A stretch of 64,000 bases of DNA from an uncultured Gemmatimonadota bacterium (GTDB lineage Bacteria > JAAXHH01): contig OX638340.1 in NCBI GenBank assembly GCA_951812955.1, positions 2,752,001-2,816,000 of the forward strand, read 5' to 3'. The notes below the pieces were generated by a model. The model had not been told where the DNA came from. It made no database searches and saw only the letters and a program-made list of their open reading frames with translations. The translations under genes were made by a program, and so were the position numbers. The first letter of the stretch is position 1; the number at the start of each line of letters is the position of its first letter. Below, in pieces: positions 8,201-26,757 of this stretch.

Positions 8201-8268
8201 AGGACGACGAGGCCCGCCGCGCCGACGGCGATGGGACGATGAATTGCAGAGGAGAGAAATCTATCCAT
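5212..8268 (-). CDS. RND family efflux transporter permease (AcrB/CzcA superfamily), subunit 2
   Basis: 1018 aa. 12-TM RND architecture with large periplasmic loops; typical N-terminus (IHRPIAVGAAGLVVLALGVASLAQLPLSLQPDIDYP) and many RND consensus blocks. Confidence 0.9.
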   Translation of the reverse strand: MDRFLSSAIHRPIAVGAAGLVVLALGVASLAQLPLSLQPDIDYPTLVISADWPGASSEAVVKHVTAPIEAELASVPGIVEVRSVSREGNARVQAGCDPAAPVAVTRALVVDRLAVLRPDLPPHVRPRVSEAPPEIFRDLDGFMSYRLSGPVTDHALRRLALEDIRPALLAVDGVSDVEVIGGREEELHLLLDASRMENTGLSPADFHRALRLGVESHAAGTLRRRGASVPLWTAPLAVGIHDLARLPVTSDGDRVLRLGDLAETRWTLSTPQGVSRVNGLPAITVEIARQPGTNMLNVADRVKNQMETLGDLLPSGVVLSLIVDRSDDVRLALRDIALRVSVALIAIVLLLLLFLRQLRTVVILLSTIALSALGAMICFKALGLGLDLLTISGLALAFGILVDNAVVVYENIRRRREEGEDRDSATVQGTTEMLIPVAATTLTTVVALVPIIYLSNELKQHIGPFALGLGLTLLASVAVAGIWVPVIGRLLDRGATLQAGSRKSTRIGRWYKGVVARMIRWRWPIAVAIVTGFGLSVYLFITDVWKGPSFSWGGAYTYIDVVIYGPPGMETATVDSVAVAFERYALAVGGKGVQVTATVQETRARVHTLFIDRTARSPLPYAMEAEMENMATRFGGLDIGVYGYGQGFSTGGERAVSINYRLRGYNFDDLRNHAERLALKLGRHRRVRNVEITHSPRGGFGSGGPYYELQLKPSQRVLARAGMRLNDLSTALFPYTDRHQPDGELLIEGRRVPYRMLVARKEQTTGFERIPLGGADRRINAGDAGVLAFKRVSTDILRSEQQYERWISYEFVGTIRLADRYRRSFLASVDLPPGYRIDVPNWSDFDQADRGEMNFALGLAVALVLLITSALFESFRRALVVLMTVPMGLTGIFLVFWYFDLSFDRGAYLGTVFMIGIVVNNAILLVDCMARLQRSGMLLDEAIITAAGQRLRPILITSLTTLVGLTPLLITGHPSTRDLWTSLSYTGLSGLAISTVLVLFVTPALYRLIAPGVRQKRA

Positions 8269-11376: not shown

Positions 11377-11612
11377 GATCGCTCAGGTATAGTGGCCGTC
11401 CGCGATACGATAGACCGCGATTCGGGGGTTGGGCTCGCCGTCCTCAACGGGCGCCATATCGACCCGTACATTTCGTCGTCGAGATCAGGCGGCGTGTCGC
11501 GTACCCACTCCAGGTTGGAATCCCGCGCGGTGGCGGGGTCGGAAGATACAACCAGAAGGGCGAAGATCATCACGGGGATAACGAGTTTCAACACGTTGTC
11601 TCCTCTCGTCAC
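11373..11612 (-). CDS. Small hypothetical protein (signal/TM-anchored) inside the RND operon
   Basis: 79-aa ORF that overlaps the adaptor stop and the permease start with ATGA overlaps at both ends. GAGGAG sits upstream of an in-frame GTG. Hydrophobic N-terminus LKLVIPVMIFALLVVSS; the rest is low complexity. Unconfirmed. Confidence 0.25.
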   Translation of the reverse strand: MTRGDNVLKLVIPVMIFALLVVSSDPATARDSNLEWVRDTPPDLDDEMYGSIWRPLRTASPTPESRSIVSRTATIPERS

Positions 11613-12820
11613 TCCATCATGCTCACGCTCACCGGGACGTCATGGGCCAGCGTGACGTTTCCGGTAACGGCCACTGTATCGCCTTCGGCGAGTCCGGAGG
11701 TGATTTCTCGCCAGTCGTCTGCCTCCCGGCCCAAGGCGACGTAGGTCCACTGGGCCCGTCCATCCCGTATTCGAAAGACCAGGGGGCGCTCGTCGCGGAC
11801 GACGATGGCGCCGGCGGGCACGGCCAACCGGTTCTCGTAGAGCGTACCCTCGATTCGGATCTCGGCGTACATGCCCGGTTTCAGCCGGCCGTCGGCGTTG
11901 GGCAGGTCGGCCTCAACGTAGCCCGTGCCCCTTTCCTCGTCCACAGCGGGGTAGATACGGGCGATGCGGCCTTCGAAGGATTCTTCCGGCCAGGCGACAA
12001 CCCGAATCCGTATGCCGCGGCCGATGTCGACTGCGCCTAAGTCGCTTTCCAACACGGCGGCCTTGACGCGGATACGGGACACATCCATGATCGTGAGGCA
12101 GGTTTCCCCGGCGGCGACCTGTTGACCTTCTTCGACGAGTCGTTCTGCGATGATGCCGGAATAGGGGGCGTTGATGGCGGTTTGTTCCAGGTCCAACACG
12201 GCGCGAGCATGAGCGATCTCCGCTCCGGTAAGGCCGGTATTCTGCGCGATGAGATCATACCTGTGATCCCCGGAGAGTAACTGCACGGCTTCGTAGTCTC
12301 TGCGGGCGGTCTGAAGCGCCGCCTGATCGATTTCCTCCCGCTCGATGGCAGCTTGCGCCTTGCGCCAGGCGTTTCTCTTGGTGTGTGTCCAGGTCGTATC
12401 GGGCGCCGTGACTTCGGTAGTGTCGGTGATGAATAGCGCGTACCTGTACCGGGCGTCCATGAGCGCCGAACGGGCTTCGTCCACCTGGATGCGGAACCGT
12501 TCTTCTTCCAGTCGTGCCAGGAGTTGGCCCTCATTGACAGTTTCGCCCTCGCGTACCAGGACGCTTTGGATTCTGCCGCCTACCCCCGCGCTCAGATCGG
12601 TCCGTCGTCCGGCCAGGAGACGACCGGAGGCCACGATCGTCCTCGTCAGCGTCCTTTGGGTTGCTACCGCGGCTTCCACGGGGAAGGGCTGCGGCTCGGT
12701 TTCCACCGGGACGGCACCCATAGGCTCGTTCGAAGTACCGGTCGGTTCGGGTCGCAGGAATATGACCGCCGCGACAATGGCGAGGATGACGATAATGAGG
12801 ATGGGAATGATCGTTTTCAT
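11609..12820 (-). CDS. Efflux RND transporter periplasmic adaptor subunit (membrane fusion protein, HlyD family)
   Basis: N-terminal TM anchor (MKTIIPILIIVILAIVAAVIFL); biotinyl-lipoyl-like and beta-barrel regions; C-terminus RIRDGRAQWTYVALG...GDTVAVTGNVTLAH typical of MFPs. Confidence 0.88.
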   Translation of the reverse strand: MKTIIPILIIVILAIVAAVIFLRPEPTGTSNEPMGAVPVETEPQPFPVEAAVATQRTLTRTIVASGRLLAGRRTDLSAGVGGRIQSVLVREGETVNEGQLLARLEEERFRIQVDEARSALMDARYRYALFITDTTEVTAPDTTWTHTKRNAWRKAQAAIEREEIDQAALQTARRDYEAVQLLSGDHRYDLIAQNTGLTGAEIAHARAVLDLEQTAINAPYSGIIAERLVEEGQQVAAGETCLTIMDVSRIRVKAAVLESDLGAVDIGRGIRIRVVAWPEESFEGRIARIYPAVDEERGTGYVEADLPNADGRLKPGMYAEIRIEGTLYENRLAVPAGAIVVRDERPLVFRIRDGRAQWTYVALGREADDWREITSGLAEGDTVAVTGNVTLAHDVPVSVSMME

Positions 12821-12823
12821 GGA

Positions 12824-13273
12824 TTATCCTGAATGATTGGCATTCCCCATGAATATCATACGATGCTCGAGAATCAACTTCCGACGTATGGGTTTGCCGG
12901 GTGAATAGCTCAGATACCCCCCGAAGCCTCTTTCTCTTGCGTACACGTGCGCGACGGGTTGGAATTGTGCTCGATACACACTGTAATAGAACACCATTTG
13001 AATGGGACGGATCAGTCTGACCAACAAACTGGCCTTGATTGTGCGTCGAGGGAAATGTACGTCGCCGTCGTCATTGGTTGTCCTATCCTGGCTGCTATAG
13101 GTTTTTTCAAGGGCGAAGTGCCGCCAATACTGGTGTACGTCAACACCTTTCAGCGGGTAACCGTCCCTGTCGAACACAGTAACGCTCCAGGCAGGTACTA
13201 CGGTGGACTCTACAGGATAGCCTATTACAACTGCTGTGACAAGAATGATCACTGTCACAAAGTATTTGCGCAT
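12824..13273 (-). CDS. Hypothetical secreted protein
   Basis: 149 aa with a signal peptide (MRKYFVTVIILVTAVVIGYP). Sits in a locally AT-richer patch. Its stop lies 4 bp from the adaptor start and it overlaps the MauE gene end. No recognisable family. Confidence 0.4.
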   Translation of the reverse strand: MRKYFVTVIILVTAVVIGYPVESTVVPAWSVTVFDRDGYPLKGVDVHQYWRHFALEKTYSSQDRTTNDDGDVHFPRRTIKASLLVRLIRPIQMVFYYSVYRAQFQPVAHVYARERGFGGYLSYSPGKPIRRKLILEHRMIFMGNANHSG

Positions 13274-13731
13274 TTAAACGCCTCCCTTATTGAAAATGGA
13301 ACGTGACGCGCGTAGACAAGACTTGAAGCGGCCGCCAATATGAACGTATTCCGAACCAGCACTTCGGCAATGGAGACGTTTCTTAAGTCATCGCCTAATC
13401 CGAAACAACCGCACGGCAGGTCTGCCCCGTAATACAGCCCCCAGGCCAGCGCGCCCATAAAGGACAACATCAGCAGCACAACGATCATCGCGCTATATCG
13501 GATCCATACCCCAATCACGAGACATAAACCGGTTGAGATTTCGATCCAGGGCAACGCAAGGGCGAAAGGGACTGCCAGCGGCTCGGGTACAATGTCATAC
13601 GACCGCACGATCTGCGCGAAGAGTTCGAGCTCCGGCATCTTGGCCAACCCTGCCCAGATAAAGATACCCCCTACCACTAAACGCAGCGCCAGGAGACCGA
13701 AGGGAACTATACGATCGTGTCCGCTTGCCAT
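13255..13731 (-). CDS. MauE/DoxX family membrane protein
   Basis: Four predicted TM helices and the CGCFG motif (DLPCGCFGLGDD) characteristic of methylamine-utilisation MauE-like / DoxX proteins. Confidence 0.7.
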   Translation of the reverse strand: MASGHDRIVPFGLLALRLVVGGIFIWAGLAKMPELELFAQIVRSYDIVPEPLAVPFALALPWIEISTGLCLVIGVWIRYSAMIVVLLMLSFMGALAWGLYYGADLPCGCFGLGDDLRNVSIAEVLVRNTFILAAASSLVYARHVPFSIREAFKCANTL

Positions 13732-13755: not shown

Positions 13756-14844
13756 CTACAATGTGTCGAGAGGTTGCCTGAGCGTGTATGTCACTACGGC
13801 GGGATTGGATGACTCGTCGGCGGGTTCCACCAACATGTACAGACGATCTTCCCGTGTGAAGAGCGCGTCCGGACCTCCCATGAAATCCGGCATCTGGAGA
13901 CTGCTCGCGATCTGGTTCAGATCGGCATCGTACAGATCCATGAAGACGCGGGACCCTTGCGGGTCGGCGAATACTGCGCCCAGCCACCGATCGCCGATTC
14001 TAAGGAGTTGATAGAACTGGCTCCATGAACGCATATACTCCTGCCGTTTCCGCATGTCGTCCAGGACCATCGCGTCGGGCGGGTCCCGCGGAGGCACGTA
14101 GAAGGGCGATCGACCCTGCGCGGTTTTCACGAGTTCGCCATCGGGCGTGTATTTCCTCACGGTATATTCGTACGGGGTCGCGACGTAGAGAAACCGCCCG
14201 ACCGATACAATCCCTCCACCCCGTGAAGCCGCGGCGACATTGTAGTTCTCGGACTGAGGGGCGAATTCATTGAGCGTATCGCCCTGATCGTTCAATTCGT
14301 GCACCACGTGAATTGCGCCGCTGGTATTCACGTATCCGAAAACCCGACCCTCGGCAGTTACGTGTATATCTTCCAATCGCGGCGAAGGCGAGAAGCTGTT
14401 CCTGAAAACATAGTCGTTCCCGTAGATTGAAATGCGTGACAGCGTCATGTCGTAAAGTAAAAAAACTCCATCTCGCGTAGCCGCCAATGCAAGGGGATAG
14501 CGATACTCGCCGGGACCATCGCCCGGAGCGCCGAGGTGTTTTTTGCCTCGTCCCTTCCCATCGAATACGTCGACGCGAGTGGTAACGAAGTCCAGCACGA
14601 TGCAATCACCGTTGGACGCCACGGCGCCGATCTTGGGCAAAGGACCGAGCAGGAACTCATCGCTCGAATCGAGATTGATCCTCGATTCCACCCGGTAGAC
14701 ATCGTCGAATGTCAACGGTCGCTCCTGGCTCGCGCATGCCAACGGTCCGCACAGTCCGCATAGTATGAACAGCGCAATGGCAGAACGCGAAGCGGGACAC
14801 CATCTTGTAACGGGTGTAAAGGAACTGAGGTTTTTCGTGCTCAC
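13756..14844 (-). CDS. 6-bladed beta-propeller lipoprotein, TolB-like/NHL-like (paralog A)
   Basis: Signal peptide plus lipobox-like LAC. Repeated beta-strand blades (GDCIVLDFVTTRVDVFDGKG, LYVATPYEYTVRKYTPDGELV). Clear paralog of 15566..16717. Confidence 0.7.
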   Translation of the reverse strand: MSTKNLSSFTPVTRWCPASRSAIALFILCGLCGPLACASQERPLTFDDVYRVESRINLDSSDEFLLGPLPKIGAVASNGDCIVLDFVTTRVDVFDGKGRGKKHLGAPGDGPGEYRYPLALAATRDGVFLLYDMTLSRISIYGNDYVFRNSFSPSPRLEDIHVTAEGRVFGYVNTSGAIHVVHELNDQGDTLNEFAPQSENYNVAAASRGGGIVSVGRFLYVATPYEYTVRKYTPDGELVKTAQGRSPFYVPPRDPPDAMVLDDMRKRQEYMRSWSQFYQLLRIGDRWLGAVFADPQGSRVFMDLYDADLNQIASSLQMPDFMGGPDALFTREDRLYMLVEPADESSNPAVVTYTLRQPLDTL

Positions 14845-14889: not shown

Positions 14890-15531
14890 TCAACCTTGTG
14901 CCGCGATGGTATTGATGTAGACGCCAAGCTTCTCATAGAAAGTGACGGTTCCCTGTTCGTCCTGATAATCCGAGTAATTCGCCAGTAGAACTCGATTGTC
15001 ACGTCCCAGAAACACGATCAAGGGGTATCTGTTGTAATCGAACCTCTTTAACAGATGTGATTCGGCGTCCATTACGGCAACGTCTTGAATCCGGTATTGT
15101 TTCAGATGAGAGAGAAAATGGGTCTCTTGAAAATCGGAAAAAACCATAATGGCGTCTATGTTTCTTTCCCTCAAGCGACTACGATACTCGTTGAACAACC
15201 GAAGCTCCATGTCCAGACAGCGGTTGCAGTTCGTTCCCGCAAAATGGTAGATCAGCTTATAACCGCCCGTATCCGAAAACAGGTCTCTGAACCTGGTGTT
15301 GGCGCGCTGCAATCGAGCTAGATCCGGTCCCAGACCAGCGCCTTCAAGCGCATGTTCATGGATGGTCAATTGTTCGCCTATGCTCATGGTCACCTTGTTC
15401 TTCCACGTGCCGTTTTCGGCGGTTAACTCCGATACTCTTTGGAACAGCACGATATTCAATGTGAGCAAGGAAACAATTCCGGCTAAAAGCCATTTTCGAG
15501 GTATGTCGAGACTAACCGCATTCGATGACAT
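14890..15531 (-). CDS. Thioredoxin-fold protein with CxxC motif (TlpA/MauD-like redoxin)
   Basis: N-terminal TM/signal anchor (WLLAGIVSLLTLNIVLF). Redox motif GTNCNRCL (C-x-x-C) in a thioredoxin-like context. Confidence 0.6.
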   Translation of the reverse strand: MSSNAVSLDIPRKWLLAGIVSLLTLNIVLFQRVSELTAENGTWKNKVTMSIGEQLTIHEHALEGAGLGPDLARLQRANTRFRDLFSDTGGYKLIYHFAGTNCNRCLDMELRLFNEYRSRLRERNIDAIMVFSDFQETHFLSHLKQYRIQDVAVMDAESHLLKRFDYNRYPLIVFLGRDNRVLLANYSDYQDEQGTVTFYEKLGVYINTIAAQG

Positions 15532-15565: not shown

Positions 15566-16717
15566 TTAACCCGATGATTTGAGTTCGTAGACGACTACAG
15601 TTGGATTGGGCAGATTCTTAACGTCCTGCGACAACACGACGGGTGCTTCTGAACGCAGCAGATAGAGTCGGTCACCCCTGGAGACGATCCCCTGCGAACC
15701 ACCGCCAATGTGCTCGGGCAATTGCAGGTCGCCGGTAACGTAATTGAGATCTGTGTCGTAGAGATCCAAAAACACGCGACGCTCATTTGGTTCGGCCAGG
15801 ACCACTCCTATCATCTCGTCTCCTATCTTCAACAGTTGTCTTATGTGGCTCCACGTGGCGTGGTACGCTTGTCGTTTGCGGAGATCGCTCGAAATTTCGT
15901 GCTCATCAAAGTCTGTCGAAGGCGGCACATAGTGCGACGATCTGCCCCGTACCGTTCGAATCAGTTTTCCACCAAGATCGTACTTCCGAAGTTCGTACTC
16001 ATAGGGGGTGATTACATAAAGGTGTGAACCAAGCAGCAAGATACCTCCCCCTCTGGATTCTCCCACGGTACTGAACTCCTCGTATTGATCGGCGAAACTG
16101 TTCTTGATCTCTCCTGACCTAGTGCACTCGTAGACTACCCTATCGGCCCCCTTCCTGCTAGCGACACCACTCGTATAGCAAAAGAAGCGATCGTCGGCTG
16201 TCACGATAATCTGACCCAGGAAAAGAGGAAGATCGACACTGCTGTTGAACGTAAAATCTTCGCTGTACTCCTGGATTCGCAGAAGATCTCCATCGTATAC
16301 GTAGTACCTGTGTGTTTGATCGCTATAGTAAAGGTTATCGGGGTAGAGGTATTGGTCCGCATTCGTCCCAAGACTTCCAATCTTCGCCTTGCTTCCGCCC
16401 TTGGAGTCGAATACAAGTATCTGTCGAACCCCGAAGTTATCCAACACAATGAAATCGCCCTGTTCGTTTATCGCGCTGAACCAGGGCAAAGCGCTCAGCG
16501 TGAAGCCCGAATCATTGGCAAGCGGGATCTGACGTATTTCTGTATACACTTCCAAGAAAGACTGTTTATCTCCATAGGAATCGGCGAGATGAGCAATGGA
16601 TGTATTGCGGGCTTCTTCCATCGAACCATGAGTACTCTGACACGCCATTGCTCCCATGAAAAACACCATTAGCGAAAAGGACAGCAACCGTAGCGTTTCA
16701 TTCGTTCGCTCTGACAT
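15566..16717 (-). CDS. 6-bladed beta-propeller lipoprotein, TolB-like/NHL-like (paralog B)
   Basis: Signal peptide plus AMAC lipobox-like. Blades GDFIVLDNFGVRQILVFDSKG and LYVITPYEYELRKYDLGGKLI are colinear with paralog A. AGGAGG lies 9 nt upstream of the ATG. Confidence 0.7.
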   Translation of the reverse strand: MSERTNETLRLLSFSLMVFFMGAMACQSTHGSMEEARNTSIAHLADSYGDKQSFLEVYTEIRQIPLANDSGFTLSALPWFSAINEQGDFIVLDNFGVRQILVFDSKGGSKAKIGSLGTNADQYLYPDNLYYSDQTHRYYVYDGDLLRIQEYSEDFTFNSSVDLPLFLGQIIVTADDRFFCYTSGVASRKGADRVVYECTRSGEIKNSFADQYEEFSTVGESRGGGILLLGSHLYVITPYEYELRKYDLGGKLIRTVRGRSSHYVPPSTDFDEHEISSDLRKRQAYHATWSHIRQLLKIGDEMIGVVLAEPNERRVFLDLYDTDLNYVTGDLQLPEHIGGGSQGIVSRGDRLYLLRSEAPVVLSQDVKNLPNPTVVVYELKSSG

Positions 16718-16750: not shown

Positions 16751-17087
16751 CAGTACAACCGGAAAGTGCTCGCTTCTTAAGTTGACGCTTATCGTGAATC
16801 GAACCACCACAATCCTATCGGTCAGGCTTGACTACGCTCAAGGCCAGGTATGAGCGCTAAATGGAGAACAATGATGAGATGTCGAGGGCTGGCAGTGGTA
16901 CACGTTATTTGCTACATGTACCCAATTGTATACTTGATTGGCTCCTGCCGGCTCCGTGGACAACGCCAGCATGCTCATTGCGCCGGCCATCGTCAATGCA
17001 CCGACGAACATTACACGAGTGAAGATGCTTCTGATTGAAGTTTTGATGACCGTGCTCCTTTCATTGTGCCTTTCCGGTTGTACTGTG
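16751..17087. repeat. Perfect 16-bp inverted repeat (cagtacaaccggaaag / ctttccggttgtactg) flanking a 305-bp AT-richer segment
   Basis: Read directly from the sequence. Left arm 16751-16766, right arm 17072-17087. The IR extends to 17 bp with one more matching base. Confidence 0.8.
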
Positions 17088-17170: not shown

Positions 17171-17692
17171 CTACACCTCCATAATCTCCACCAGTTCGTC
17201 TTCAGGATACGGGAAATGCCCCTGGGTACCCCGGTTGACCCGGGCCATGCGCTCCCCGAACACCATGTCTTCTCTGATCAATTCCGAAGTCCTGTGAATG
17301 CACTCCAACGTTGGGATTCCTCCTGTCGCGATCGCTGCTTCGGCTTCCTCCAGAAGAGCCGTCATGTCGTAAAACATCTTGATATTCGGCGACAGCATCT
17401 TGCGAGCCTGTTCCGGCAGTGAGGCGCGTAACTCCAGACAGAGATCGAGGGCTTTCAGAAGATGTTCCCTCGCGATTCGAAAGCACTTCCGTGCTTTACT
17501 CAGTGAAGCGCGATACGGCAGGATATTTCCCGCCAGGCAGGCGCCCAGATCTTCTATTTCCTCCAGGGCGCCAAGTCCCATGAAATAGTGGCCCCATCCC
17601 GTAAGTGTGAGCGGATAGATCCGGTGTTCGAAGGCTTCTTTGAGCTCCACATTGTCTGGCATCGGCGGAAGTGGGCAGGTCCAATCAGACAT
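17171..17692 (-). CDS. Hypothetical protein (173 aa)
   Basis: Clean ORF with no family recognised. First gene downstream of the palindromic operator-like site at 17793-17809. Confidence 0.5.
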   Translation of the reverse strand: MSDWTCPLPPMPDNVELKEAFEHRIYPLTLTGWGHYFMGLGALEEIEDLGACLAGNILPYRASLSKARKCFRIAREHLLKALDLCLELRASLPEQARKMLSPNIKMFYDMTALLEEAEAAIATGGIPTLECIHRTSELIREDMVFGERMARVNRGTQGHFPYPEDELVEIMEV

Positions 17693-17792
17693 TGTAGGCC
17701 TCCTTCAGTACATCAATTGGTGAAGAGACTCGCGGAGATGGAACACTGGAACGATCTACCCATTAAAGAAAGGAAAGCCGGACCGGTTATCT

Positions 17793-17809
17793 ATAGGGTG
17801 TATCCCTAT
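17793..17809. promoter_or_regulatory. Palindromic operator-like site ATAGGGTGTATCCCTAT, copy 1
   Basis: Perfect 6-bp arms with a 5-bp spacer. About 100 bp upstream of the start codon of 17171..17692 (minus strand). A near-identical copy lies at 18612-18628. Confidence 0.45.
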
Positions 17810-17890
17810 TTGCTCGTTTTTTTTCACCGGAATCGAAAAAACCTGATTCCGGTCTTGAAGGAGTAGAGCGTCTCCTTTAAACGAACGTGT

Positions 17891-18526
17891 TCATTCTTCC
17901 ATTTTGATCAGACCAAGTTTGATCGCCGCTCGGATCAGATCGGGAAGGCTGTGCGTGTCTAGTTTCGCCATCAGATTTATGCGATGATTCTGCACGGTTT
18001 TTATACTGATTCGCATGGTTTCGGCTATCTGGCGATTGGATCGCCCCGATACGATCAGTCGAAGGATTTCGCGCTCACGGGGAGTAAGCCGGGGCGGTGT
18101 GCCATGGGGGTACTCCTCATACAGGTAATCGGCATGATCCATGGCCCGGGATTGGTACGTAACGCCCCTGCAAACGGTGCGTATCGCTTTGACCAACTCT
18201 TCGCCCGCTGATTTCTTGAGCACGTAGCCCCTGGCGCCGTTGTCCAGCGCTTTCCGGATCAGTGCGGGATCGGAATGCATCGACAGCATGACCACCCGGA
18301 CCTCGGAAAACGACGCGCGAATCCGCCTCGTCGCTTCGATACCGTTGATACCGGGCATCTCGACGTCCATCACTATGACGTCCGTTCGGACTCGATGCAC
18401 GGCATCGATCGCCTCCCGGCCATCCACGGCCTCGGCGACTATTCGAATATCGGACTCTTTTTCGAGCAGGTCCCGCAGCCCCTGCCGAATCAGATGATGA
18501 TCGTCTGCAATCACTACGCGTATCAT
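17891..18526 (-). CDS. LuxR/NarL-family response regulator (REC + HTH)
   Basis: MIRVVIADDHHLIRQGLRDLL...DVIVMDVEMPGINGIEA... C-terminal LuxR HTH (LTPREREILRLIVSGRSNRQIAETMRISIKTVQNHR). Confidence 0.9.
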   Translation of the reverse strand: MIRVVIADDHHLIRQGLRDLLEKESDIRIVAEAVDGREAIDAVHRVRTDVIVMDVEMPGINGIEATRRIRASFSEVRVVMLSMHSDPALIRKALDNGARGYVLKKSAGEELVKAIRTVCRGVTYQSRAMDHADYLYEEYPHGTPPRLTPREREILRLIVSGRSNRQIAETMRISIKTVQNHRINLMAKLDTHSLPDLIRAAIKLGLIKMEE

Positions 18527-18611
18527 ATGATGTTCGCGATCTCCTCTTCTGGTCGTTACATGACGAAATCCGTCGTTTGCTCAATACTAACAACAAAAAG
18601 GGGGACTATCC

Positions 18612-18628
18612 ATAGGGTGTTTCCCTAT
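18612..18628. promoter_or_regulatory. Palindromic operator-like site ATAGGGTGTTTCCCTAT, copy 2
   Basis: Located in the 196-bp gap between the two response-regulator genes, about 85-100 bp upstream of the 17891..18526 start codon. Confidence 0.45.
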
Positions 18629-18722
18629 GTTCCGCTTTTTCTTACGGTATTGGGGGGCTGAAGTGGCGAGAGAGATAGACTGCGGCCAACCGGATTGCTA
18701 CCAAGCGGGGAAAGACGACGGT

Positions 18723-19376
18723 TCATTCATCCAGGAAAGCGAGACGGTGCTTGAGGGCCAGGAGTATGAGATCCGGCAGATTGTGGACTTTCAACTTCTT
18801 CATCAGGATCGCGCGGTGTTTTTCCACGGTCTTGTCGCTGATGTTCAGGACCTCCGCCGCGGCCTGATTGGTATGTCCCTCGACGATGAGCTGAAGTATC
18901 TCCCGTTCGCGGGATGAAAGCTGCTCCAGAACGGCCTTTGACTCATTCGCCGATTCCGTCTGCAGGAATCCCGATAGCACGGTTTGAGCAATCGAAGGTG
19001 AAAGATAGATTTCGCCCTTGTTGGCGGACCGGATGGCGATCAGGAGTTCCTCCACGACGGATCTCTTGAGGAGATACCCGCTGGCCCCGCATCTGAGCGC
19101 CTGGCGCACCACGTCCTCATCCGAATGCATGGATAGTATGACGACGCGGGTATCGACGGACAGCGTCTGAATCCGCCGCGTGGTCTCGATACCGTTCAGC
19201 AAAGGCATGGCGATATCCAACATGGCGACGTCCGGTCTCTTCCGTTGTACCAGGTTCAGGGTCTCGTGACCATCGGCCGCTTCGCCGACAACTTCCATAT
19301 CCTCGGCCTTTTCGATTAGAGACACGATGCTTTGACGGACCAGTTGGTGATCGTCGGCAATAACGATCCTGATCAT
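18723..19376 (-). CDS. LuxR/NarL-family response regulator (REC + HTH), paralog
   Basis: MIRIVIADDHQLVRQSIVSLIE... LSSREREILQLIVEGHTNQAAAEVLNISDKTVEKHR. Its start overlaps the kinase stop (ATGA). Confidence 0.9.
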   Translation of the reverse strand: MIRIVIADDHQLVRQSIVSLIEKAEDMEVVGEAADGHETLNLVQRKRPDVAMLDIAMPLLNGIETTRRIQTLSVDTRVVILSMHSDEDVVRQALRCGASGYLLKRSVVEELLIAIRSANKGEIYLSPSIAQTVLSGFLQTESANESKAVLEQLSSREREILQLIVEGHTNQAAAEVLNISDKTVEKHRAILMKKLKVHNLPDLILLALKHRLAFLDE

Positions 19377-22159
19377 TTCTCCTCCAAAGGAATTGTAGCG
19401 ACCAGACGGGCTCCCGCGCCTGGTTTCGAGTAAACATTCATGCGGCCATTCAGCGATTCAAGGCGTTCCTGCATATCTATCAAACCGATTCCTGTTTCAT
19501 TCTGATCCGAAAGTGTATCTGCAAGATCAAAACCCTGGCCGTTATCCTGTATCGATAGTTGTACGACTTCGCCATTGCGTTTCAAGCTAACTTCCACATG
19601 AGAGGCTTGTCCGTGTTTGACGCAGTTCGTCAGCCCTTCCTGCAGTATACGATACAGGCAGATATCGATTGGATTGGAGATTTCCGTAGTATCCATGCCA
19701 ACGTATGAGACCGGCATTTGAGTTCGTTGTGTTAAACTCTTGCATAGTCCTTCCAATGCTGTATTCAGCCCGACTGTATCCAGTGTCGGGGGACGGAGAT
19801 TATGGGAGATCGCACGTAGTTTCTCCAGCGTCTCGTCGGTTAGCGCCACGGCGTCGCTCAGCCGTTCTGCCGTATGATCGGAGACCCCGGACAACTCGTT
19901 CCGGGTTATTTCAAGGCTCATCTTCAGCGCCGTGAGCGCTTGTCCCGTATCGTCATGGAGATCCCGCGCCAGCCGGCTTCTTTCCGATTCCTGAATGTCG
20001 ATGAGTCGTCTGGAGAGTCTCTTCAATCCCAGGGCCTGATGCCGTAGCGATGTTGCCATATCGAGGTTCTTCAACGCCAATTCCAATTCGGCCGACAGGA
20101 CCAGCAACTGTTCTTTTTCATCGCTGTTGAACGGTTCTTCGCTGAGTTTTGCACCCAGTGCAATACATCCTTGACGGTCAGATCCTTGTCCGAGTACGAC
20201 CATGAGTTCGCACCCGGTGTCTCTCATACTTTCATTTGCGTACAGTTCGCGATACTCGACCAACGATTGCTCGGGGGGTATCGATCGCAGAAGGCCTTCG
20301 ACCTTGCCGGCTGCTTCAGTGAAGAACGTTTCATTTCTCTTGAGATCCTGCTCCGGCTTCTCACGCACTGCGTACCATCGGACCGAAAGCGATTCCTGAG
20401 GACTTTCTGCAAGGTATATCGCCAGATAGCAAACGTCCAATCCCTCCAGCAACTCTTGCCCGGTGGCGCTCAAAAGCGCATTACGATCCTGGTATTGCGT
20501 TAAGGATTGCTCGAGTCTGAAAAGGCGTTGTCGGTTTTCATATTCATCACGCAAAAGATATTGATTCAGTAAGCGGATGACGGGCGTCTTCACCCAGGTC
20601 CACCCTCCGACGAGTATCAAGGTGAATCCAGCGGCAGCGCTGGCGATCAGAAGATCGGAGGTTTCCATACCGGTCGGCCACACGGATATCAGTTCAAATA
20701 GTGCGATTAACGTCCAGAAGCTGAATATGAGATATATGCTCTTGGCATTGGCCAGGTAACGCAGACCACTTCCGAAGACGAACTTCAGGCCGAACACTCG
20801 GTGTGCCAGAATGGTATAGACAAAGGCGAGCGGCAGTCCACACTGCAGTACTACGTGGATGATCCGATCGAAGAGCCAGACTAATACCGGCAGGGCGGCC
20901 CCCCTTATTGGAATCAGGTCCCAACTGGCCAGAAGTGTACCAGGTTGCGTAATAGTCCACACGGGAGCCAAAATGAGGGCCGAGATGAATCCTGCCTTGA
21001 TGATATGCAGTCGCGTGCGTTGCTGATGCCGCGCGACGGAACGTTGGGCTATCATAAGACATCCCGCGGCGATGACAACGAGGGTGGGCAGCGCGGGAAC
21101 GGGCACTGGTTCAACGATTTCCGTGATGATACCAACTCCTGCGTGGTCCCACCCATAGGTCAGACTCAGCAAATAGATCAGACGGCACGATAGCCAGACA
21201 ATCAGGGGCGTCAGGATGAACCACCGGTTTTTGAGCAGCCATGATCCGAAAGCCGTCGCACTGGGGAAGACGGCAAGAATCCGAAACATGAGAACGATTT
21301 CCAGTAAGGATGCCGCGACGATGGCGAATATGCTGAGGAACAGTACCCAGTCCGGCCATCCGGCTATCATGGGATGGAAAGCGGGCGAGGAGGAAAGCGC
21401 CATAGCGAGGAAGAGCAACGCGCATCGAAAGGCAAGGGGACTGTGCGGACTCCTGAACCCCATCCAGGTTCCGAAGACCAGCAGGACCATCGGTAAAATC
21501 AGATACGGCCCCCGTTGGAACCACGTCATCGCGCCTACGCCCAGTACGAGTTCCTCCTGATTGACCTCGACTGCGTATCGTACCTGTTCCGTGGCCTCAA
21601 GCGTGAGTATACCAGCGTGCATGCTGCCGTCGCGAAGCCAGGCAAGATTGAAACGTTCACCGGGCTTGCTCCGCAAACGCGCCTGGAAATAGGCTTCGGG
21701 ACGTGTCCCGAGATCCGTGCCATCAATAGAGATCACCAGGTCACCCGGTCGCAATCCGGCTTTGTCCGCAGGGCTGTCCGCGTCTACTTGCGTGACGGTA
21801 ATACCGCCGTCCTCGCGTATGCGAACGAGGTGGAACCACGTGCCCTCCTGCAGATTGCTCACCGCACTTTTCGTGAGTCCCTTCGTCTGTATCATTTCAT
21901 TTCCGAAGAACTGGATACCCGGTGACCAGTGCTCGATTTGCGTGAACCGTACCAGCGTCCACGTGACCAGTCCTAAATGCATACACGTGAACATGACCAG
22001 TGCGCTGAGTGCGACGTATCGGCGGATGAGTGTCTTCAACCGAGAGCTACTCAATTGCGAGGGAATTGTATTTGAAGAGTCATTCATGTCAACATACAGA
22101 TTGCTTTTCGAGAAGCATCCTGAAGCAATTTCGGAAAACAGGTGGACTTGACTCAACAA
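19373..22159 (-). CDS. Membrane sensor histidine kinase with N-terminal PDZ domain, multi-TM region, GAF-like and HisKA_3/HATPase_c domains
   Basis: PDZ-like segment VTQVDADSPADKAGLRPGDLVISIDGTDL after TM1. About 8-10 hydrophobic helices. H-box ERSRLARDLHDDTGQALTAL (NarL-type HisKA_3). Then N/G boxes (DNGQGFD, GIGLIDMQERL). Confidence 0.85.
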   Translation of the reverse strand: MLSQVHLFSEIASGCFSKSNLYVDMNDSSNTIPSQLSSSRLKTLIRRYVALSALVMFTCMHLGLVTWTLVRFTQIEHWSPGIQFFGNEMIQTKGLTKSAVSNLQEGTWFHLVRIREDGGITVTQVDADSPADKAGLRPGDLVISIDGTDLGTRPEAYFQARLRSKPGERFNLAWLRDGSMHAGILTLEATEQVRYAVEVNQEELVLGVGAMTWFQRGPYLILPMVLLVFGTWMGFRSPHSPLAFRCALLFLAMALSSSPAFHPMIAGWPDWVLFLSIFAIVAASLLEIVLMFRILAVFPSATAFGSWLLKNRWFILTPLIVWLSCRLIYLLSLTYGWDHAGVGIITEIVEPVPVPALPTLVVIAAGCLMIAQRSVARHQQRTRLHIIKAGFISALILAPVWTITQPGTLLASWDLIPIRGAALPVLVWLFDRIIHVVLQCGLPLAFVYTILAHRVFGLKFVFGSGLRYLANAKSIYLIFSFWTLIALFELISVWPTGMETSDLLIASAAAGFTLILVGGWTWVKTPVIRLLNQYLLRDEYENRQRLFRLEQSLTQYQDRNALLSATGQELLEGLDVCYLAIYLAESPQESLSVRWYAVREKPEQDLKRNETFFTEAAGKVEGLLRSIPPEQSLVEYRELYANESMRDTGCELMVVLGQGSDRQGCIALGAKLSEEPFNSDEKEQLLVLSAELELALKNLDMATSLRHQALGLKRLSRRLIDIQESERSRLARDLHDDTGQALTALKMSLEITRNELSGVSDHTAERLSDAVALTDETLEKLRAISHNLRPPTLDTVGLNTALEGLCKSLTQRTQMPVSYVGMDTTEISNPIDICLYRILQEGLTNCVKHGQASHVEVSLKRNGEVVQLSIQDNGQGFDLADTLSDQNETGIGLIDMQERLESLNGRMNVYSKPGAGARLVATIPLEEK

Positions 22160-22307
22160 GCAAGTTTACTCGATCCAGGCCCGATACACCACCGGCGGTT
22201 TTCCCCGATCTCTGTACGACGACATGACCGCTTACATACAGCGGCCGGAACAGTGGCGTCACGTTCATGGGGTCGGTACGAGGTCGGGGCATGTCAGGGA
22301 AGGGATA

Positions 22308-22703
22308 TTAGCCGTCCGGTTCGGCGACATAGGTGTAGAGGATCGTTCCATCCCGGTCAAGCTGGAAGACCTCGTACCGCTTGGAGGGCGAGTATAGAAT
22401 ACGGCCATCAGGTGTTTGCGACAGATGGTTAAAGTTGGTTCGCACAGGTATGGTTGGTTTGCCGCCTATCACGAACTTACCGATTCCGTAACGAAGATTA
22501 CCGCCCATTTCGTAAACGGCGAAAATCGGTTCGTCCCATACGGAATTCACGGCGATCTCTCCGTCGTTCCCGGCCAGGATTCCGCTGGGAGGCAACAGAT
22601 TCTCGATGCGAAAATCCGAGAGGTGCGCGCCGTTCATCGTAAAGACCGTAATACGATTGTTTCCCGAGTCAAGAACAATGACTTTCTCATTGGATATGGC
22701 CAC
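22308..22703 (-). pseudogene. Fragment of a 6-bladed beta-propeller protein (same family as 13756..14844)
   Basis: VIVLDSGNNRITVFTMNGAHL...YEVFQLDRDG aligns to internal blades of the intact paralogs. It lacks the N-terminal signal and the C-terminal third, and flanking frames are broken. Confidence 0.55.
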
Positions 22704-23032
22704 ACCTAGAGGTCGATTCAGCTCTCCGGGACCAGACCTCCCATACTATTCCGATGAGAAACCGCCCCTGATGATTCGACCACCCAGATCGTGTGATGCC
22801 GGTCGTCAGCCAGAAAGAAACGGCCATCCGCGTCCATGTTTTCATGATGTCTGTGACCGATAGTATCTGGGCATTGGGCGGATAGTTAAGCTTGCCGTAA
22901 CCTGGGGCAATCGGCCTCGTAAGTCGCGATGACGGTACCGTCCCACTTCATTCTGAATACGGGGTATTCCTTGACCGCAGAATATAGAATATGACCCTCA
23001 GGCGTCTGGTTGAAATGCTGATCGCCCTGGTC

Positions 23033-23566
23033 CTATCCAACAGTCTGGTCTGGCACTCTTTCACCTCGGCTTCCTACAACGCTACCACACAAATCGTAGA
23101 CCGTAAAAAGTGTTTGCCCCCAGAGAGAATTGACCGCGATCTGGCCGTTCTTGCTCGCCAGTATTCCGGATGTCATTTGAAATTCCAACCGGAAGTCGTC
23201 TAAATACATACCATCCATCTTGAATATCATTACCCGGCTATTGCCGGAATCGTTCACGATGACTTTGTTTTCAAATACAGCTGCTCCTCCTGGACGCAGC
23301 AGTTCACCGGGGCCGGCCCCGTCCCGGCCAATGCGGCTGATCAGTTTGCCCTCTGAGTCACAAATCCAGACTGTATTCTGCTGCCCGTCCGTCAGGTAAA
23401 ACCGGCCGTCGTTGTCCCGTATCAGGTCTCCGATTTTTCCAGCAATCTCATCTTCAAGATCCAGCGGAATTGCACTGACTTTCTCGACTGCGAATGGCTG
23501 GGCATTTGCGGAACCCAAAAGTAACCACCATGATACAGGTTGATACAACCATGATAAGAACGGCAA
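23033..23566 (-). pseudogene. N-terminal fragment of a 6-bladed beta-propeller protein (signal peptide retained)
   Basis: Signal peptide, then VIVNDSGNSRVMIFKMDGMYLDDFRLEF...QIAVNSLWGQTLFTVYDL, highly similar to fragment 22308..22703 and to the intact paralogs. Truncated after about 177 aa. Confidence 0.55.
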
Positions 23567-23619
23567 AGTCGTTTACGCCTTTCTTCAAGAATTCACGTGT
23601 AAGGCGCCTCATTCCCACA

Positions 23620-23796
23620 ACCGTACCCGGACCGGCACGTGTGGGCCAGTGTAGTGTTGCCGGTGTCGGCCACCGTGTCGCCCTCGCTGATCCCTGAGGT
23701 CACTTCCCGCCAATTGTCGCCTTCCTTACCCAGGTTGACGTACGTCCACTGGGCCCTTCCACTACGAATTGAAGTAAGAATACCCGGGAATCCCAC
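23620..23796 (-). pseudogene. C-terminal fragment of an RND adaptor (MFP) gene
   Basis: IRSGRAQWTYVNLGKEGDNWREVTSGISEGDTVADTGNTTLAH versus the intact adaptor C-terminus IRDGRAQWTYVALGREADDWREITSGLAEGDTVAVTGNVTLAH. Nothing upstream of it is adaptor-like. Confidence 0.6.
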
Positions 23797-25289
23797 TACA
23801 ACCCCGGCCGCTCCACGTCCTCAGCCGCCGGTCCCTGCAGGTTGACGTTGTCCGTGGTGGGCCAGCGCACGGTATACTGTGCGGAGCGGTCCCGCTTGTA
23901 TCCGGCGTGCCAGTAGTTGCTGGCGGCCAGCCACTCCAGCAGGTCTTCCTTCATCTTCGTCTTGATCCCCGCATACGCATCGTCGTCCCACCGGTTCCAC
24001 AGCTCCCCGGGATCGCCTTCCAGGTCGTATAGCTCGCCCTCCTCCTGGCCGATGTAGTAGACCATCTTGTGGGTCGGGCCGCGCATCATGATCTGGTAGT
24101 TGTCCTCGCAGAAGACATAATCCCGCGGAACGACCGCTCCATCCGGGTCGGCGTAGGGCATGAGGGAACGCCCTTCCAGGTAAGTGGGGACCGGAACGCC
24201 CGCCGCTTCGAGGATGGTGGGGCCCAGATCCATGAGGGAAACCAGGTCGCTTACGTGGTCGCCCCGGCGCCGGCGGTCCGGGTAGCGGATGATGAGCGGA
24301 ATGTGGGTGATGGTGTCGTACATGAGCCACTTGTAGGCCATGGCGTGGTCGCCTAGATTCTCGCCGTGGTCCGAACAAAAGACGACCAGCGTGTTGTCCA
24401 GGTAGCCTCTTGCCTCCAGGGCGTCCATGATTTCGCCCATCTTCTCGTCCACCGTGGTGACTTTCGCGTAATAGTGGCGGCGCATGCTATCGATGCGGTC
24501 GTCGTTCGCCAGGTACATGTTGATGCCGGATTCGTGGCCGGCCGTGGAGAACATCTTCTTCAGCGCTTCATGCTGTCGCGGTTTCTCCGCCAGTTCGTTC
24601 TCCCGGGTTACCGGCCGGGGTATCTCCACTCCGTCGTACTGGCTCAGATGGCGGGGCAGCGGGTCCCAGGGTTCGTGGGGACCCGTAAAGCCGATTTCGA
24701 GGAAGAAGGGTTTGTCGCCGCGGTGGTTGCGGATCCAGTTGAGCGCCGAATTGCCGATGAAGACGTCGCTGTGGAACCGCTCTTCCTCGTGCCACGGCAC
24801 GCCCTGCAGTTTCGTCCACCAGTCCGGGTCGGTCTTGTGCCGGTCGTTGGGCCGTTCCACCCCGTGGAAGGTCATGTACCGGCCCCAGTCGTCGTCCGCG
24901 CCGCCGCCGGCCAGGTTCATGTTGGTCGGATTCTCGACGACGACCCGTTCGTGGAACCCGCCGGGCATGTCCCGAGGCATGAAATGCATCTTGCCGATGC
25001 TGGCGCACCAGTAGCCGTTATCCGCGAGGTCCTGCACCCAGTTGCGGTGGAGTCCCCAGGGCTGGAAACTGTAGACGCCCGTGTTATGGGGGTACATGCC
25101 GGTGAAGATGGCGGCCCGCGAGGCAACGCAGGTGGCGCCAGGACAGTAGGCCTGCCGGAAGGAAACCCCTTCCCGGACGAGCCTGTCGTGGGCCGGGGTG
25201 GTCATGTGGGGATTGTCCCAGCCGCGGATCGTATCGACGCGCTGCTGGTCGGTCATGATGAGGATGATATTCGGGCGATCCGAGGGCAT
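23796..25289 (-). CDS. Sulfatase family protein (arylsulfatase-like)
   Basis: PNIILIMTDQQRVD N-terminus, metal-binding Asp cluster, and the formylglycine motif region AYCPGATCVASRAAIFTG (C-V-A-S-R). Length 497 aa. Confidence 0.85.
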   Translation of the reverse strand: MPSDRPNIILIMTDQQRVDTIRGWDNPHMTTPAHDRLVREGVSFRQAYCPGATCVASRAAIFTGMYPHNTGVYSFQPWGLHRNWVQDLADNGYWCASIGKMHFMPRDMPGGFHERVVVENPTNMNLAGGGADDDWGRYMTFHGVERPNDRHKTDPDWWTKLQGVPWHEEERFHSDVFIGNSALNWIRNHRGDKPFFLEIGFTGPHEPWDPLPRHLSQYDGVEIPRPVTRENELAEKPRQHEALKKMFSTAGHESGINMYLANDDRIDSMRRHYYAKVTTVDEKMGEIMDALEARGYLDNTLVVFCSDHGENLGDHAMAYKWLMYDTITHIPLIIRYPDRRRRGDHVSDLVSLMDLGPTILEAAGVPVPTYLEGRSLMPYADPDGAVVPRDYVFCEDNYQIMMRGPTHKMVYYIGQEEGELYDLEGDPGELWNRWDDDAYAGIKTKMKEDLLEWLAASNYWHAGYKRDRSAQYTVRWPTTDNVNLQGPAAEDVERPGL

Positions 25290-25386: not shown

Positions 25387-26757
25387 CTATGCCACTCGGT
25401 CCTCCATCGCGCCGTTTTCGCCCGCTTCTGACCGGGGATGCAGCCTGTTCACCTCGGCCTTGATGATACGTTGCCCTTCGACTTCGCGTACCACGATTCT
25501 GGCATTTCTGAATGGCACTTCCTCACCGGATTCGGGCACCCGGCCGAGTTCATTGAAAATCAGGCCGCCTACGGTTTCGAACCCGTCCGGCGTGATATCG
25601 AGATCCAGGATGTCGTTCAGCGTATCGATATTGAGCCGGGCATGCACGATGTACGAGCCGTCGGGCATCGCCTCATACATGGGGTCCTCGTCGTCGTATT
25701 CGTCCTGTATCTCGCCGACGATCTCCTCGAGCAGGTCCTCCAGGGTCACCAGCCCCGCGGTGGTCCCGTGTTCGTCGACGACGATGGCCAGATGGATCTT
25801 GTCCTGCTGGAACTCCTTCAACAACTCGGCGGCTTTCTTGGTCTCCGGCACGACATAGGGCGGACGGAGCAACGCATCCAGATCCTTCTCTCCTTCCGGA
25901 TCTTCGCTGAGTTGAAGCAGATCCTTGGCGTAGACGACCCCCACTATATCATCGACGGAATCGCCGTAGATTGGAATCCGCGAGTGTCCCATCTCACGGA
26001 TGAGTTCCAGCAGTTCCGGTACGGGCCTGGACCTTTCGGCGCATACCATATCCACTCTCGGGACCATCACCTCGCGCACGCTGGTGTCGTGCAATTCGAT
26101 GATGCTGCTGATCATCTCCTTGTCGTCGGGTTTCAGCTCGCGGGTTTCTTCCAGCTCGAGTACCCGGTGCAGTTCGTCGTCTAACCAGTAAGGATTGCGT
26201 CCGCTGCTGAAAAGCCCCGCGCGTGCCATGCGCCGGTTGAGTAACAGCAGCGGCGTAATCAGTGGCCAGAACAGCCAGTAGCTGATGAGTACGAGTACGG
26301 CCGAGACGCGAACGGTCGGCTCGGAGTAGCGCGACACGATCAATCTCGGCAGCCATTCGATGAGCACCAGCAGCAGCCCGATGGCGAACAGTCCCGAGAA
26401 GGTCAATGTGAGTGCCGATCCGATTGATTCGGTGAGCGGCGGGGTCAGGAAAAGGGCTACCACGGAGATCACGACACCGGCCGTGGTAATGATTTTCCCG
26501 ATCAGCAAGGTAGTGAAAAGGCGTTCCTGATTGTCCAGCCACCGGGTAACGCGGTTGGACTGTCCACCCTCGTGGGCGGCCTTAAGTTCCTGGAGCGTAT
26601 TTTTGGGCAGGCTGGAAAACGCGGATTCCGCTCCGGTCAGGAGCATGGCGTAGATGGTGCACCCTGTGAGGACAAGCCATTCGACCAATAGGGGAATGTC
26701 GTCATCCACAACATTTTTCTCCCATGTGACCTTCCGGAATCCCGCTGGCGGCCGCAT
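25387..26757 (-). CDS. HlyC/CorC family transporter (DUF21-CBS-CorC_HlyC)
   Basis: N-terminal DUF21 4-TM domain, a tandem CBS pair, and a C-terminal CorC_HlyC transporter-associated domain (TLEDLLEEIVGEIQDEYD). Confidence 0.85.
   Translation of the reverse strand: MRPPAGFRKVTWEKNVVDDDIPLLVEWLVLTGCTIYAMLLTGAESAFSSLPKNTLQELKAAHEGGQSNRVTRWLDNQERLFTTLLIGKIITTAGVVISVVALFLTPPLTESIGSALTLTFSGLFAIGLLLVLIEWLPRLIVSRYSEPTVRVSAVLVLISYWLFWPLITPLLLLNRRMARAGLFSSGRNPYWLDDELHRVLELEETRELKPDDKEMISSIIELHDTSVREVMVPRVDMVCAERSRPVPELLELIREMGHSRIPIYGDSVDDIVGVVYAKDLLQLSEDPEGEKDLDALLRPPYVVPETKKAAELLKEFQQDKIHLAIVVDEHGTTAGLVTLEDLLEEIVGEIQDEYDDEDPMYEAMPDGSYIVHARLNIDTLNDILDLDITPDGFETVGGLIFNELGRVPESGEEVPFRNARIVVREVEGQRIIKAEVNRLHPRSEAGENGAMEDRVA

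Follow-up and report, generated by a model that had tools for sequence, protein, structure and literature searches.

In the 64-kb stretch of Gemmatimonadota DNA analysed here (the window, to which all coordinates refer unless a relative's contig is named), a block of 1635 bp at 22161-23795 on the minus strand separates a sulfatase gene from a cassette encoding a two-component system, beta-propeller proteins, a periplasmic adaptor and two RND pumps. The block holds the relics of three genes, namely the C-terminal end of an RND periplasmic adaptor (the last ~59 codons) and two propellers, P1 (~255 codons) and P3 (~220 codons). These were compared with contigs from relatives, labelled L001, L005 and L006 (which carry the native-type locus), L008, L009, L010, L014 and L016; L011 and L015 stand for OY762445.1, and L002-L004 are conspecific with the window.

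Gene relics beside the sulfatase gene

The relics and the junctions that bound them are as follows:

23596..23790, minus strand: relic of the native RND periplasmic adaptor, the last ~59 codons, beginning a few bases past the sulfatase stop codon
22836..23592, minus strand: relic of the native propeller P1 (DUF5128, non-lipoprotein type), codons ~4-259 of 330-346, 3' end deleted
22830..22836, minus strand: P1/P3 deletion junction with a 7-nt microhomology, TGGACGC, found in both L001 parent genes
22176..22836, minus strand: relic of the native propeller P3, codons ~48-267 of 324, 3' end deleted
22147..22176, minus strand: left junction of the resident cassette, where native P3 homology fades by ~22176 and sister-cassette homology begins from 22160 (CTTGTTGAGTCAAG)

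Relative to alignments with L001, L005 and L006, the block has four frameshifts, of which three lie in the propeller relics and one in the adaptor relic, together with two nonsense codons and three deletion junctions. The deletion that extends from the sulfatase stop codon to adaptor codon ~346 has removed the propeller P0 and 85% of the adaptor, and a -1 frameshift at ~23640 (CCCAC-ACGTG) alters the final residues of the part that is left. The P1 relic has a frameshift at ~23519, which puts the hydrophobic region of the signal peptide (23588-23520) out of frame with the mature part, and is interrupted further on by a TAG nonsense codon (23033-23035) and a +1 insertion (~22908). At the P1/P3 junction, P1 codon ~259 is fused to P3 codon ~48, with ~1.66 kb gone (the 3' end of P1, the whole of P2 and the 5' end of P3). 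The P3 relic then continues through a -1 frameshift at ~22738, a TAA codon at 22308-22310 and a 6-nt insertion at ~22290, and is truncated at codon ~267, where the cassette starts (22160-22176).

A first-pass annotation of this DNA had taken the fragments for decaying gene pieces, and the mapped lesions and full-length homologues of ~330 aa bear this out. However, it had drawn the propeller fragments too narrowly. The first of these (fragment A, the P1 relic) runs past the TAG and the +1 frameshift to ~22836, and three-frame translation shows its 177-aa open reading frame (ORF) reading on in frame beyond the TAG ("...DQTVG*DQGDQHFNQTPEGHILYS..."). The second (fragment B, the P3 relic), which had been placed at 22308..22703, extends from ~22836, through ORF 22718-22837 and the -1 frameshift, past the TAA to ~22176; in the same translation, "MDADGRFFLADDRHHTIWVV..." precedes the 131-aa ORF in another frame and corresponds to a blade also present in fragment A. 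Likewise, the signal peptide assigned to the 177-aa ORF is not the native one, whose hydrophobic region lies in the other frame, at 23588-23520.

The adaptor fragment, encoded by ORF 23593-23796 on the minus strand, aligns with the C-terminal 43 residues of the cassette's intact adaptor (adaptor', 11609-12820) with 77% aa identity and 74% DNA identity over 132 nt (tblastn E=1.5e-17), in agreement with the first-pass annotation. Against TIGR01730 this 67-aa ORF scores 13.2 bits at profile positions 272-313 of 322, under the cut-off of 94.9, in line with its being a 43-residue C-terminal remnant; intact adaptor' scores 204 bits. The two propeller fragments had been described as highly similar to each other, which overstates a real homology (44-52% aa, E 1e-25 to 1e-35), since DNA identity is just 69% over 86 nt. 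The same description does not hold for the intact propellers of the cassette, prop1 and prop2, which gave no tblastn or blastp match to either fragment at E<=1e-3; all four simply have in common the Pfam family PF17170/DUF5128 ("6-bladed beta-propeller").

Searched against a database of 5.8 billion proteins, fragment A matches proteins of ~330 aa at E=3e-106, which rules out the low-complexity artefact that had been considered as a refutation. When repaired, it has ~33 homologues of ~330 aa at 61-79% identity, the named ones all from Gemmatimonadota; for the P1 relic, full-length homologues (~330 aa) are 65-79% identical. Against PF17170 (cut-off 22.9), the P1 relic in repaired form scores 48 bits. 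The repaired P3 relic scores 17.3 bits against the same profile and 40.2 bits against the NHL repeat PF01436 (cut-off 20), and is 71% identical to one full-length PF17170 protein. Neither propeller relic is a complete six-bladed domain (~320-350 aa in a single frame); each has about four blades and is frame-broken. Truncated and frame-disrupted relative to full-length orthologues, and reproduced in this form in independent assemblies, the fragments are judged to be real, decaying gene relics, neither chance matches nor low complexity.

The resident locus in relatives and the cassette in the window

The genes that flank the site in the window are:

25387-26757, minus strand: CNNM gene, upstream of the sulfatase gene
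23796..25289, minus strand: sulfatase gene, the conserved left flank in all relatives, with 91% DNA and 91-92% aa identity to L001/L005/L006
2725..5097, plus strand: gene for a 790-aa TPR protein, the conserved right flank, which follows RND2 in L001, L006 and L011

In L001, L005 and L006, the upstream flank is PhoH-YbeY-CNNM-sulfatase, the same neighbourhood as in the window. Between the flanks lie a P0 propeller, an adaptor, four or five tandem propellers and two RND genes, and in L001 and L006 the TPR gene closes the far side of the locus. Thus, the comparison with syntenic regions of relatives, which the first-pass annotation had proposed, finds an intact locus at the same site in all three. 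On the TPR side, the window is 0.73-0.84 identical to L001/L006 across the intergenic region and the gene end. Two TPR genes beyond RND2 are on the plus strand; all other genes discussed are on the minus strand.

Nucleotide comparison (blastn) of L001 with the window gave the following identities:

L001 upstream block: 83%
L001 sulfatase gene: 91%
L001 9830-10781 (adaptor 3' end, spacer and first 780 nt of P1) to window 23762-22830: one high-scoring segment pair (HSP), 80.5%
L001 12446-13080 (inside the third propeller, P3) to window 22838-22199: 77%
L001 adaptor and RND genes: 69-71%

Over ~160 nt, the adaptor relic is 88.8, 86.3 and 84.1% identical in DNA to the native adaptors of L001, L005 and L006, respectively, versus 74% for adaptor' of the window itself and 69% for that of L014. 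Its synonymous divergence (dS) is 0.29 to L001 and 1.34 to adaptor', and over 43 residues it is 79-81% identical in amino acids to the L001/L005/L006 adaptors. Similarly, the P1 relic is 81, 75 and 73% identical (aa) to P1 of L001, L006 and L005 and 44-49% to most other array members, and the P3 relic is 71% identical (aa) to L001 P3 and at most 53% to any other propeller. The collinear HSPs and these best matches to the relatives' adaptor, P1 and P3 indicate that the fragments are the remains of three different genes of the resident locus, with their ancestral position and order retained.

The propeller arrays of the relatives are themselves variable, with four members in L001 and five in L005 and L006, a membership that differs between genomes, and 40-60% identity among paralogues. 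At L006 8981-9973, a stop-free, full-length fifth propeller lies between the adaptor and P1 and is 74.5% identical (aa) to the adjoining P1; the gene caller gave just a 154-aa ORF there. Reading of the N-termini points to two apparent propeller subfamilies (window 13756-14844 and 15566-16717 and L001 7588-8643, compared with L001 10001-14308). In P0, prop1 and prop2, a Cys directly follows the N-terminal hydrophobic segment, as in lipoproteins (L-T-S-C is clear in L001 P0). In P1-P4 and the relics, the signal peptide ends in A-x-A followed by Q, without Cys. No intact propeller of the A-x-A type is left in the window.

The intact genes of the window present a different picture from the relics. 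Among the window, L001, L005 and L006, CNNM and sulfatase are 89-94% identical (aa) in every pair, and adaptor, RND1 and RND2 are 71-85% identical among L001, L005 and L006, whereas those of the window are 59-69% identical to the same three. A database search with the intact adaptor found relatives at 100%, 91% and 85-86% and then none above 64%, and in a neighbour-joining tree the adaptor' clade branches outside the clade of all native-type adaptors. Relative to L001, dS is 1.07-1.28 for adaptor'/RND' versus 0.28-0.72 for flanks and relics, a contrast that is suggestive only. All cassette homologues found are from Gemmatimonadota. Collectively, these comparisons indicate that the intact system is a deep-branching, non-orthologous and differently organised version that sits on the old locus. 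Its components are:

19373..22039, minus strand: PDZ-domain histidine kinase (HK), the first cassette gene; likely start TTG 22039, giving 888 aa as in homologues
18723-19376 and 17891-18526, minus strand: two LuxR-type response regulators (RR)
between the response regulators and the 69-aa ORF, minus strand: 173-aa protein
16841-17047, minus strand: 69-aa ORF for a presumably secreted Cys/His peptide, between the genes for the 173-aa protein and prop1
15566-16717, minus strand: propeller prop1
14890-15531, minus strand: thioredoxin-like protein (Trx)
13756-14844, minus strand: propeller prop2, P0-like
13255-13731, minus strand: MauE/DoxX protein
12824-13273, minus strand: 149-aa protein
11609-12820, minus strand: adaptor', intact
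8275-11376 and 5212-8268, minus strand: two RND pumps, intact

The cassette order is therefore HK-RR-RR-173aa-69aa-prop1-Trx-prop2-MauE-149aa-adaptor'-RND'-RND', in which propellers, Trx and MauE precede the adaptor and no soluble propellers lie between adaptor and pumps. The prop2 protein is the counterpart of P0 (49-52% aa). As called mechanically, the HK ORF begins at TTG 22159 (928 aa) and overlaps the cassette junction; its homologues have 888 aa. A promoter-like TTGACA-16-TACAAT is present upstream of HK at 22092-22065, inside the cassette. With this near-consensus site and the start at 22039, HK does not require the relics for its expression, and a role of the relics as its promoter was rejected as unneeded.

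The 69-aa ORF begins with what resembles a signal peptide and has a tail rich in Cys and His (...VYHCQPSTSHHCSPFSAHTWP). Its L014 counterpart is 93% identical (aa), with a ratio of non-synonymous to synonymous divergence (dN/dS) of 0.09-0.13 versus L014 and OY762445.1, and its neighbours include the Trx-like and MauE/DoxX genes and the RND pumps. Within the system, the product could be a substrate or precursor, or a peptide that binds metal.

Stages of decay in conspecific and sister genomes

Three conspecific contigs from other samples (98-99% identical; independent assemblies ENA ERZ23492359, Logan ERR3887492 and ENA ERZ27263416) reproduce all indels, the TAG codon and the junctions, and the relic block differs among conspecifics by only six single-nucleotide polymorphisms (SNPs). 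The TAA at 22308-22310 is TAC (Tyr; L001 has TAT) in two of the conspecific contigs, and is thus a polymorphic stop. The lesions are, by this comparison, genuine, and the decay is still going on. On either side of the block, SNPs relative to L002-L004 are clustered, with 16 in ~310 bp at the 3' end of the sulfatase gene (23853-24165) and ~19 in ~170 bp near the 5' end of HK (21572-21739), which looks like short recombination tracts within the population.

The genome of OY762445.1, a closed chromosome of 3.91 Mb, carries a 91% identical adaptor' and the same cassette between sulfatase and TPR, and in a scan of genome contigs it was the sole GTDB species representative matched by prop1. It is collinear with the window at 95% identity up to the sulfatase stop (ending exactly at 23796), at 90% from 22160 on, at 92-95% through the RND genes, and at 92% over a longer stretch into the TPR genes. 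The 1635-bp relic block (22161-23795) is absent between these collinear flanks, as expected of dispensable pseudogenes, and in its place lies an AT-rich spacer of 151 bp (L015 4368-4518, G+C 0.38, with TTGACA-like motifs). The spacer has no detectable homologue in any retrieved sequence, and no similarity above shuffled controls to the window block, native sulfatase-P0 spacers or HK upstream regions.

Between the window and OY762445.1, the dN/dS ratio (omega) of the cassette genes is 0.08-0.39, which indicates purifying selection. Their dS (0.05-0.42) overlaps that of the flanks (0.11-0.33). Therefore, separate acquisition of the cassette by the two lineages is unsupported. The cassette was probably already present in their common ancestor, after which the two lineages would have cleared the native leftovers unequally. 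We infer that the relics are non-functional.

Probable displacement of the resident locus and its possible routes

The relics are thus the remnant of the original propeller/RND locus, and it is likely that a divergent version of the system displaced this resident locus. Regarding source and mechanism, we infer the following course of events. In the ancestor of the window organism and OY762445.1, a divergent cassette, its DNA supplied by another lineage or by a different part of the same genome, would have come to occupy the sulfatase-TPR site. The incoming HK...RND2' segment would have replaced native P4, RND1 and RND2, joined on the right within the final ~400 bp of RND2, a conserved stretch (at a point between 5230 and 5650), and on the left without homology. 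The leftover P0, adaptor and P1-P3, pump-less or redundant, would then have decayed. In the window lineage, two nonsense mutations and four frameshifts would have accumulated beside three deletions (sulfatase stop to adaptor ~346, P1 ~259 to P3 ~48, and P3 ~267 to the cassette edge), and the sister lineage would have dropped the whole block. The likeliest way of arrival is one in which recombination used the conserved RND2 3' end as its anchor and an illegitimate join formed on the other side, by homology-facilitated illegitimate recombination (HFIR) or some similar double event. Any precise route, whether HFIR from outside or an intragenomic move, is held with far less confidence than the displacement itself.

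At the right-hand side, cassette-specific homology (to L014) stops at ~5234, and native-like identity to L001/L006 is found from ~5650. The crossover cannot be placed more precisely because the last ~400 bp of RND2 are conserved in all types. The rise in identity at the RND2 3' end was considered as a mapped crossover and rejected, as L014 shows an equal rise versus L001.

Several observations weigh against the displacement or its details. This same rise, seen also where L014 is compared with L001, reflects conservation. The window and OY762445.1 differ at the left junction, so the primary junction has been erased and the arrival mechanism cannot be read from the sequence. G+C content does not set the cassette apart as foreign; the low G+C of 13-23.8 kb was rejected as a foreign mark, since native L001 propellers have 0.54-0.56 and the L008 HK has 0.54. 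A database search with adaptor' found no donor nearer than the cassette clade itself. Additionally, dS varies strongly by gene, the native adaptors of L001 and L006 being already 0.93 apart, and the omega of the relics versus L001 (0.18-0.36) is akin to that of intact orthologue pairs (0.15-0.22). Relaxed selection is therefore not demonstrated, and the low relic omega only implies that inactivation is recent. Finally, the view of the genome is that of the 64-kb window, and further copies may be present elsewhere.

Features that could mark an insertion were sought around the locus. For the 4.5-26 kb region, the nearest tRNA is no closer than 51.9 kb, no meaningful direct or inverted repeats occur except the two adaptor 3' ends, no transposase or integrase was matched among ten proteins scanned, and no credible RNA family (Rfam) was found in 21.5-24.5 kb. 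An exact-match look-up of the window sulfatase returned no record.

The same displacement could have happened without horizontal transfer, if an old paralogous locus (for instance an HK/MacB locus as in L014) had moved in by RND2-RND2 recombination and a second break. This is a tentative possibility. It is consistent with the Gemmatimonadota origin of the cassette homologues found, with the presence of HK-RR-RR at a PcRGLX/MacB locus in two relatives, and with the position of prop1...RND2' in L014, which follows HK-RR-MacB-RR and precedes a truncated ABC-ATPase gene. However, a single reciprocal exchange between two loci cannot yield both junctions. Moreover, the complete 3.94-Mb genome that contains L005 has only a native-type adaptor (62%) and no adaptor', so the paralogue is not general in the group.

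The modules of the displacing cassette recur in other combinations. The full order in L014 (adaptor' 85%) is HK-RR-74aa-MacB-RR-69aa-prop1-Trx-prop2-MauE-149aa-adaptor'-RND'-RND', and its homology to the window ends ~20 bp short of the RND2 stop, where the truncated ABC-ATPase gene, not TPR, follows. The HK-RR-RR module adjoins a PcRGLX-family gene in L008 (from the L005 genome) and L009, flanked there by MacB genes on one side or both, and S41-peptidase/radical-SAM clusters in L010 and L016. After HK-RR-RR, the window encodes the 173-aa protein, which has a 92% identical counterpart in L016. From these arrangements, recombination has evidently reshuffled the regulatory module and the export core repeatedly.

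In the window and L016 alike, the PDZ-HK/RR/RR module (window 17171-22039) is followed by this 173/174-aa protein. Its partners are MacB/ABC permeases in L008 and L009, an S41 peptidase and radical SAM in L010 and L016, and the propeller/RND cassette in the window, OY762445.1 and L014. At L014 17394-17594, a 66-aa ORF follows RND2', and its last 38 residues are an ABC-ATPase C-terminus, 74% identical to that of a gene which is complete in L009. Here, too, a gene is truncated where a cassette ends, a second case, at another locus than that of the window.

A more general, and doubtful, proposal is that the HK-RR-RR...RND'-RND' unit, or its prop1...RND2' core, is a mobile cassette without mobility genes of its own. 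Relying on one-sided homology, it would shift between Gemmatimonadota loci, displace the homologous export systems resident there and leave host genes truncated at its borders. If so, the adaptor and propeller relics and the ABC-ATPase 3' fragment of L014 would be such scars, and the "displacement with orphans" pattern of toxin-immunity loci would extend to an efflux-type system.

The first-pass annotation had instead proposed that the intact system was duplicated in this genome and that one copy decayed to the present fragments. The fragments and intact propellers do belong to one Pfam family, the adaptor fragment is 77% identical (aa) to the intact adaptor, and both sets lie on the same strand within 12 kb. 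Nevertheless, a duplicate should resemble its partner in the genome more than it does the orthologues of other genomes, and the relics are nearer to the relatives' same-site genes both in DNA (84-89% versus 74%) and in protein (71-81% versus no BLAST match). The gene order also differs (adaptor then propellers in the relics, propellers then adaptor in the cassette), adaptor' branches outside all native adaptors, and, as read from the sequences, the fragments have an Ala-x-Ala type signal-peptidase site where in prop1 and prop2 the hydrophobic segment is followed by a Cys. Duplication is therefore highly improbable. What survives of the proposal is that two homologous systems once coexisted at the locus, and that the propeller arrays turn over (4-5 copies of varying membership); a recent duplication in the lineage is unsupported, and the relics are not a decayed duplicate of the intact locus. 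Under displacement, the newcomer would have survived and the resident decayed, which is the opposite meaning.

It is harder still to credit that the fragments are functional short genes under selection, encoding for example a peptide of 67 aa and a partial propeller with four blades (161-177 aa). Several assemblies do have called ORFs of 67, 161-177 and 131 aa, omega versus orthologues is 0.18-0.36 and within-species SNPs are few. However, such omega values are expected if inactivation is recent relative to a dS of ~0.7. Furthermore, the near-identical copies all belong to one species (98-99%) and the sister genome lacks the block, every more distant homologue has ~330 aa, the native signal peptide is out of frame, and the ORF ends are set by frameshifts and nonsense codons, one of them polymorphic. 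Sequencing or assembly errors, or chimeric junctions in a metagenome-assembled genome (MAG), have a negligible probability, for although the genome is metagenome-derived and split genes in the related long-read contigs L007 and L009 could be errors, three independent assemblies from different samples repeat every indel, the TAG and both junctions, and a closed 3.9-Mb chromosome backs the cassette position between sulfatase and TPR.

Displacement of the resident locus, then, has consequences for how the region is read. Annotators and comparative studies would otherwise mistake the intact adaptor and RND genes for orthologues of the relatives' same-site genes. The decay series runs from an intact locus in relatives, through 1.6 kb of relics with a polymorphic stop in the window, to a cleared block in the sister, and could serve to illustrate, for an uncultivated phylum, how locus replacement and deletional decay proceed. 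In addition, two architectures appear interchangeable at one locus (soluble propellers between adaptor and pumps, or lipoprotein-like propellers with Trx and MauE before the adaptor), which constrains ideas on the propeller role. Beyond these points, this is ordinary genome evolution.

The relics and the intact propellers match the DUF5128 family (PF17170), and relatives hold tandem arrays of 4-5 paralogues; here, in Gemmatimonadota, such arrays have an RND adaptor on one side and two RND pumps on the other. No publication linking DUF5128 arrays with RND pumps was found.

In the effector-immunity modules of the Vibrio cholerae type VI secretion system (T6SS), displacement leaves orphan immunity genes and effector 3' ends, and HFIR has been proposed as the process (PMC5361080); the orphan C-terminal arrays of Rhs and contact-dependent inhibition (CDI) loci are cited there as related (PMC5361080). 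As in V. cholerae, an incoming homologous module takes a conserved locus, one conserved stretch can serve as recombination anchor, and a displaced 3' end and its neighbours stay beside the newcomer. In contrast to V. cholerae, the relics lie upstream of the newcomer, they decay rather than being selectively kept (the sister genome has lost them), the window is without an array from repeated displacement, and the locus is a predicted two-component-regulated propeller/RND export locus instead of a toxin-immunity pair.

By its definition (PMC3240628), HFIR would share with the present locus a single homologous anchor (here putatively the conserved RND2 3' end, where native-like identity resumes) and a non-homologous join on the other side. 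A short microhomology (7 nt) is also present, but at one later deletion junction; the primary illegitimate junction was erased by later deletions, and the anchor is only ~80% identical between the native and cassette types. The original work on HFIR is reportedly that of de Vries and Wackernagel in 2002 and of Meier and Wackernagel in 2003, as cited in the T6SS displacement paper. To our knowledge, natural transformation is not known for these organisms.

Bacterial pseudogenes are said to decay under a deletional bias, as reportedly described by Mira, Ochman and Moran in 2001 and by Kuo and Ochman in 2010. As in that process, redundant genes here have gained frameshifts, nonsense codons and deletions and then vanish, with 1.6 kb of relics in the window and nothing in OY762445.1. 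There is no essential difference, and the locus is a typical case of pseudogenes that decay once a locus has been displaced, ordinary in kind, but with a comparative series that is unusually clear and a record that is unusually good.

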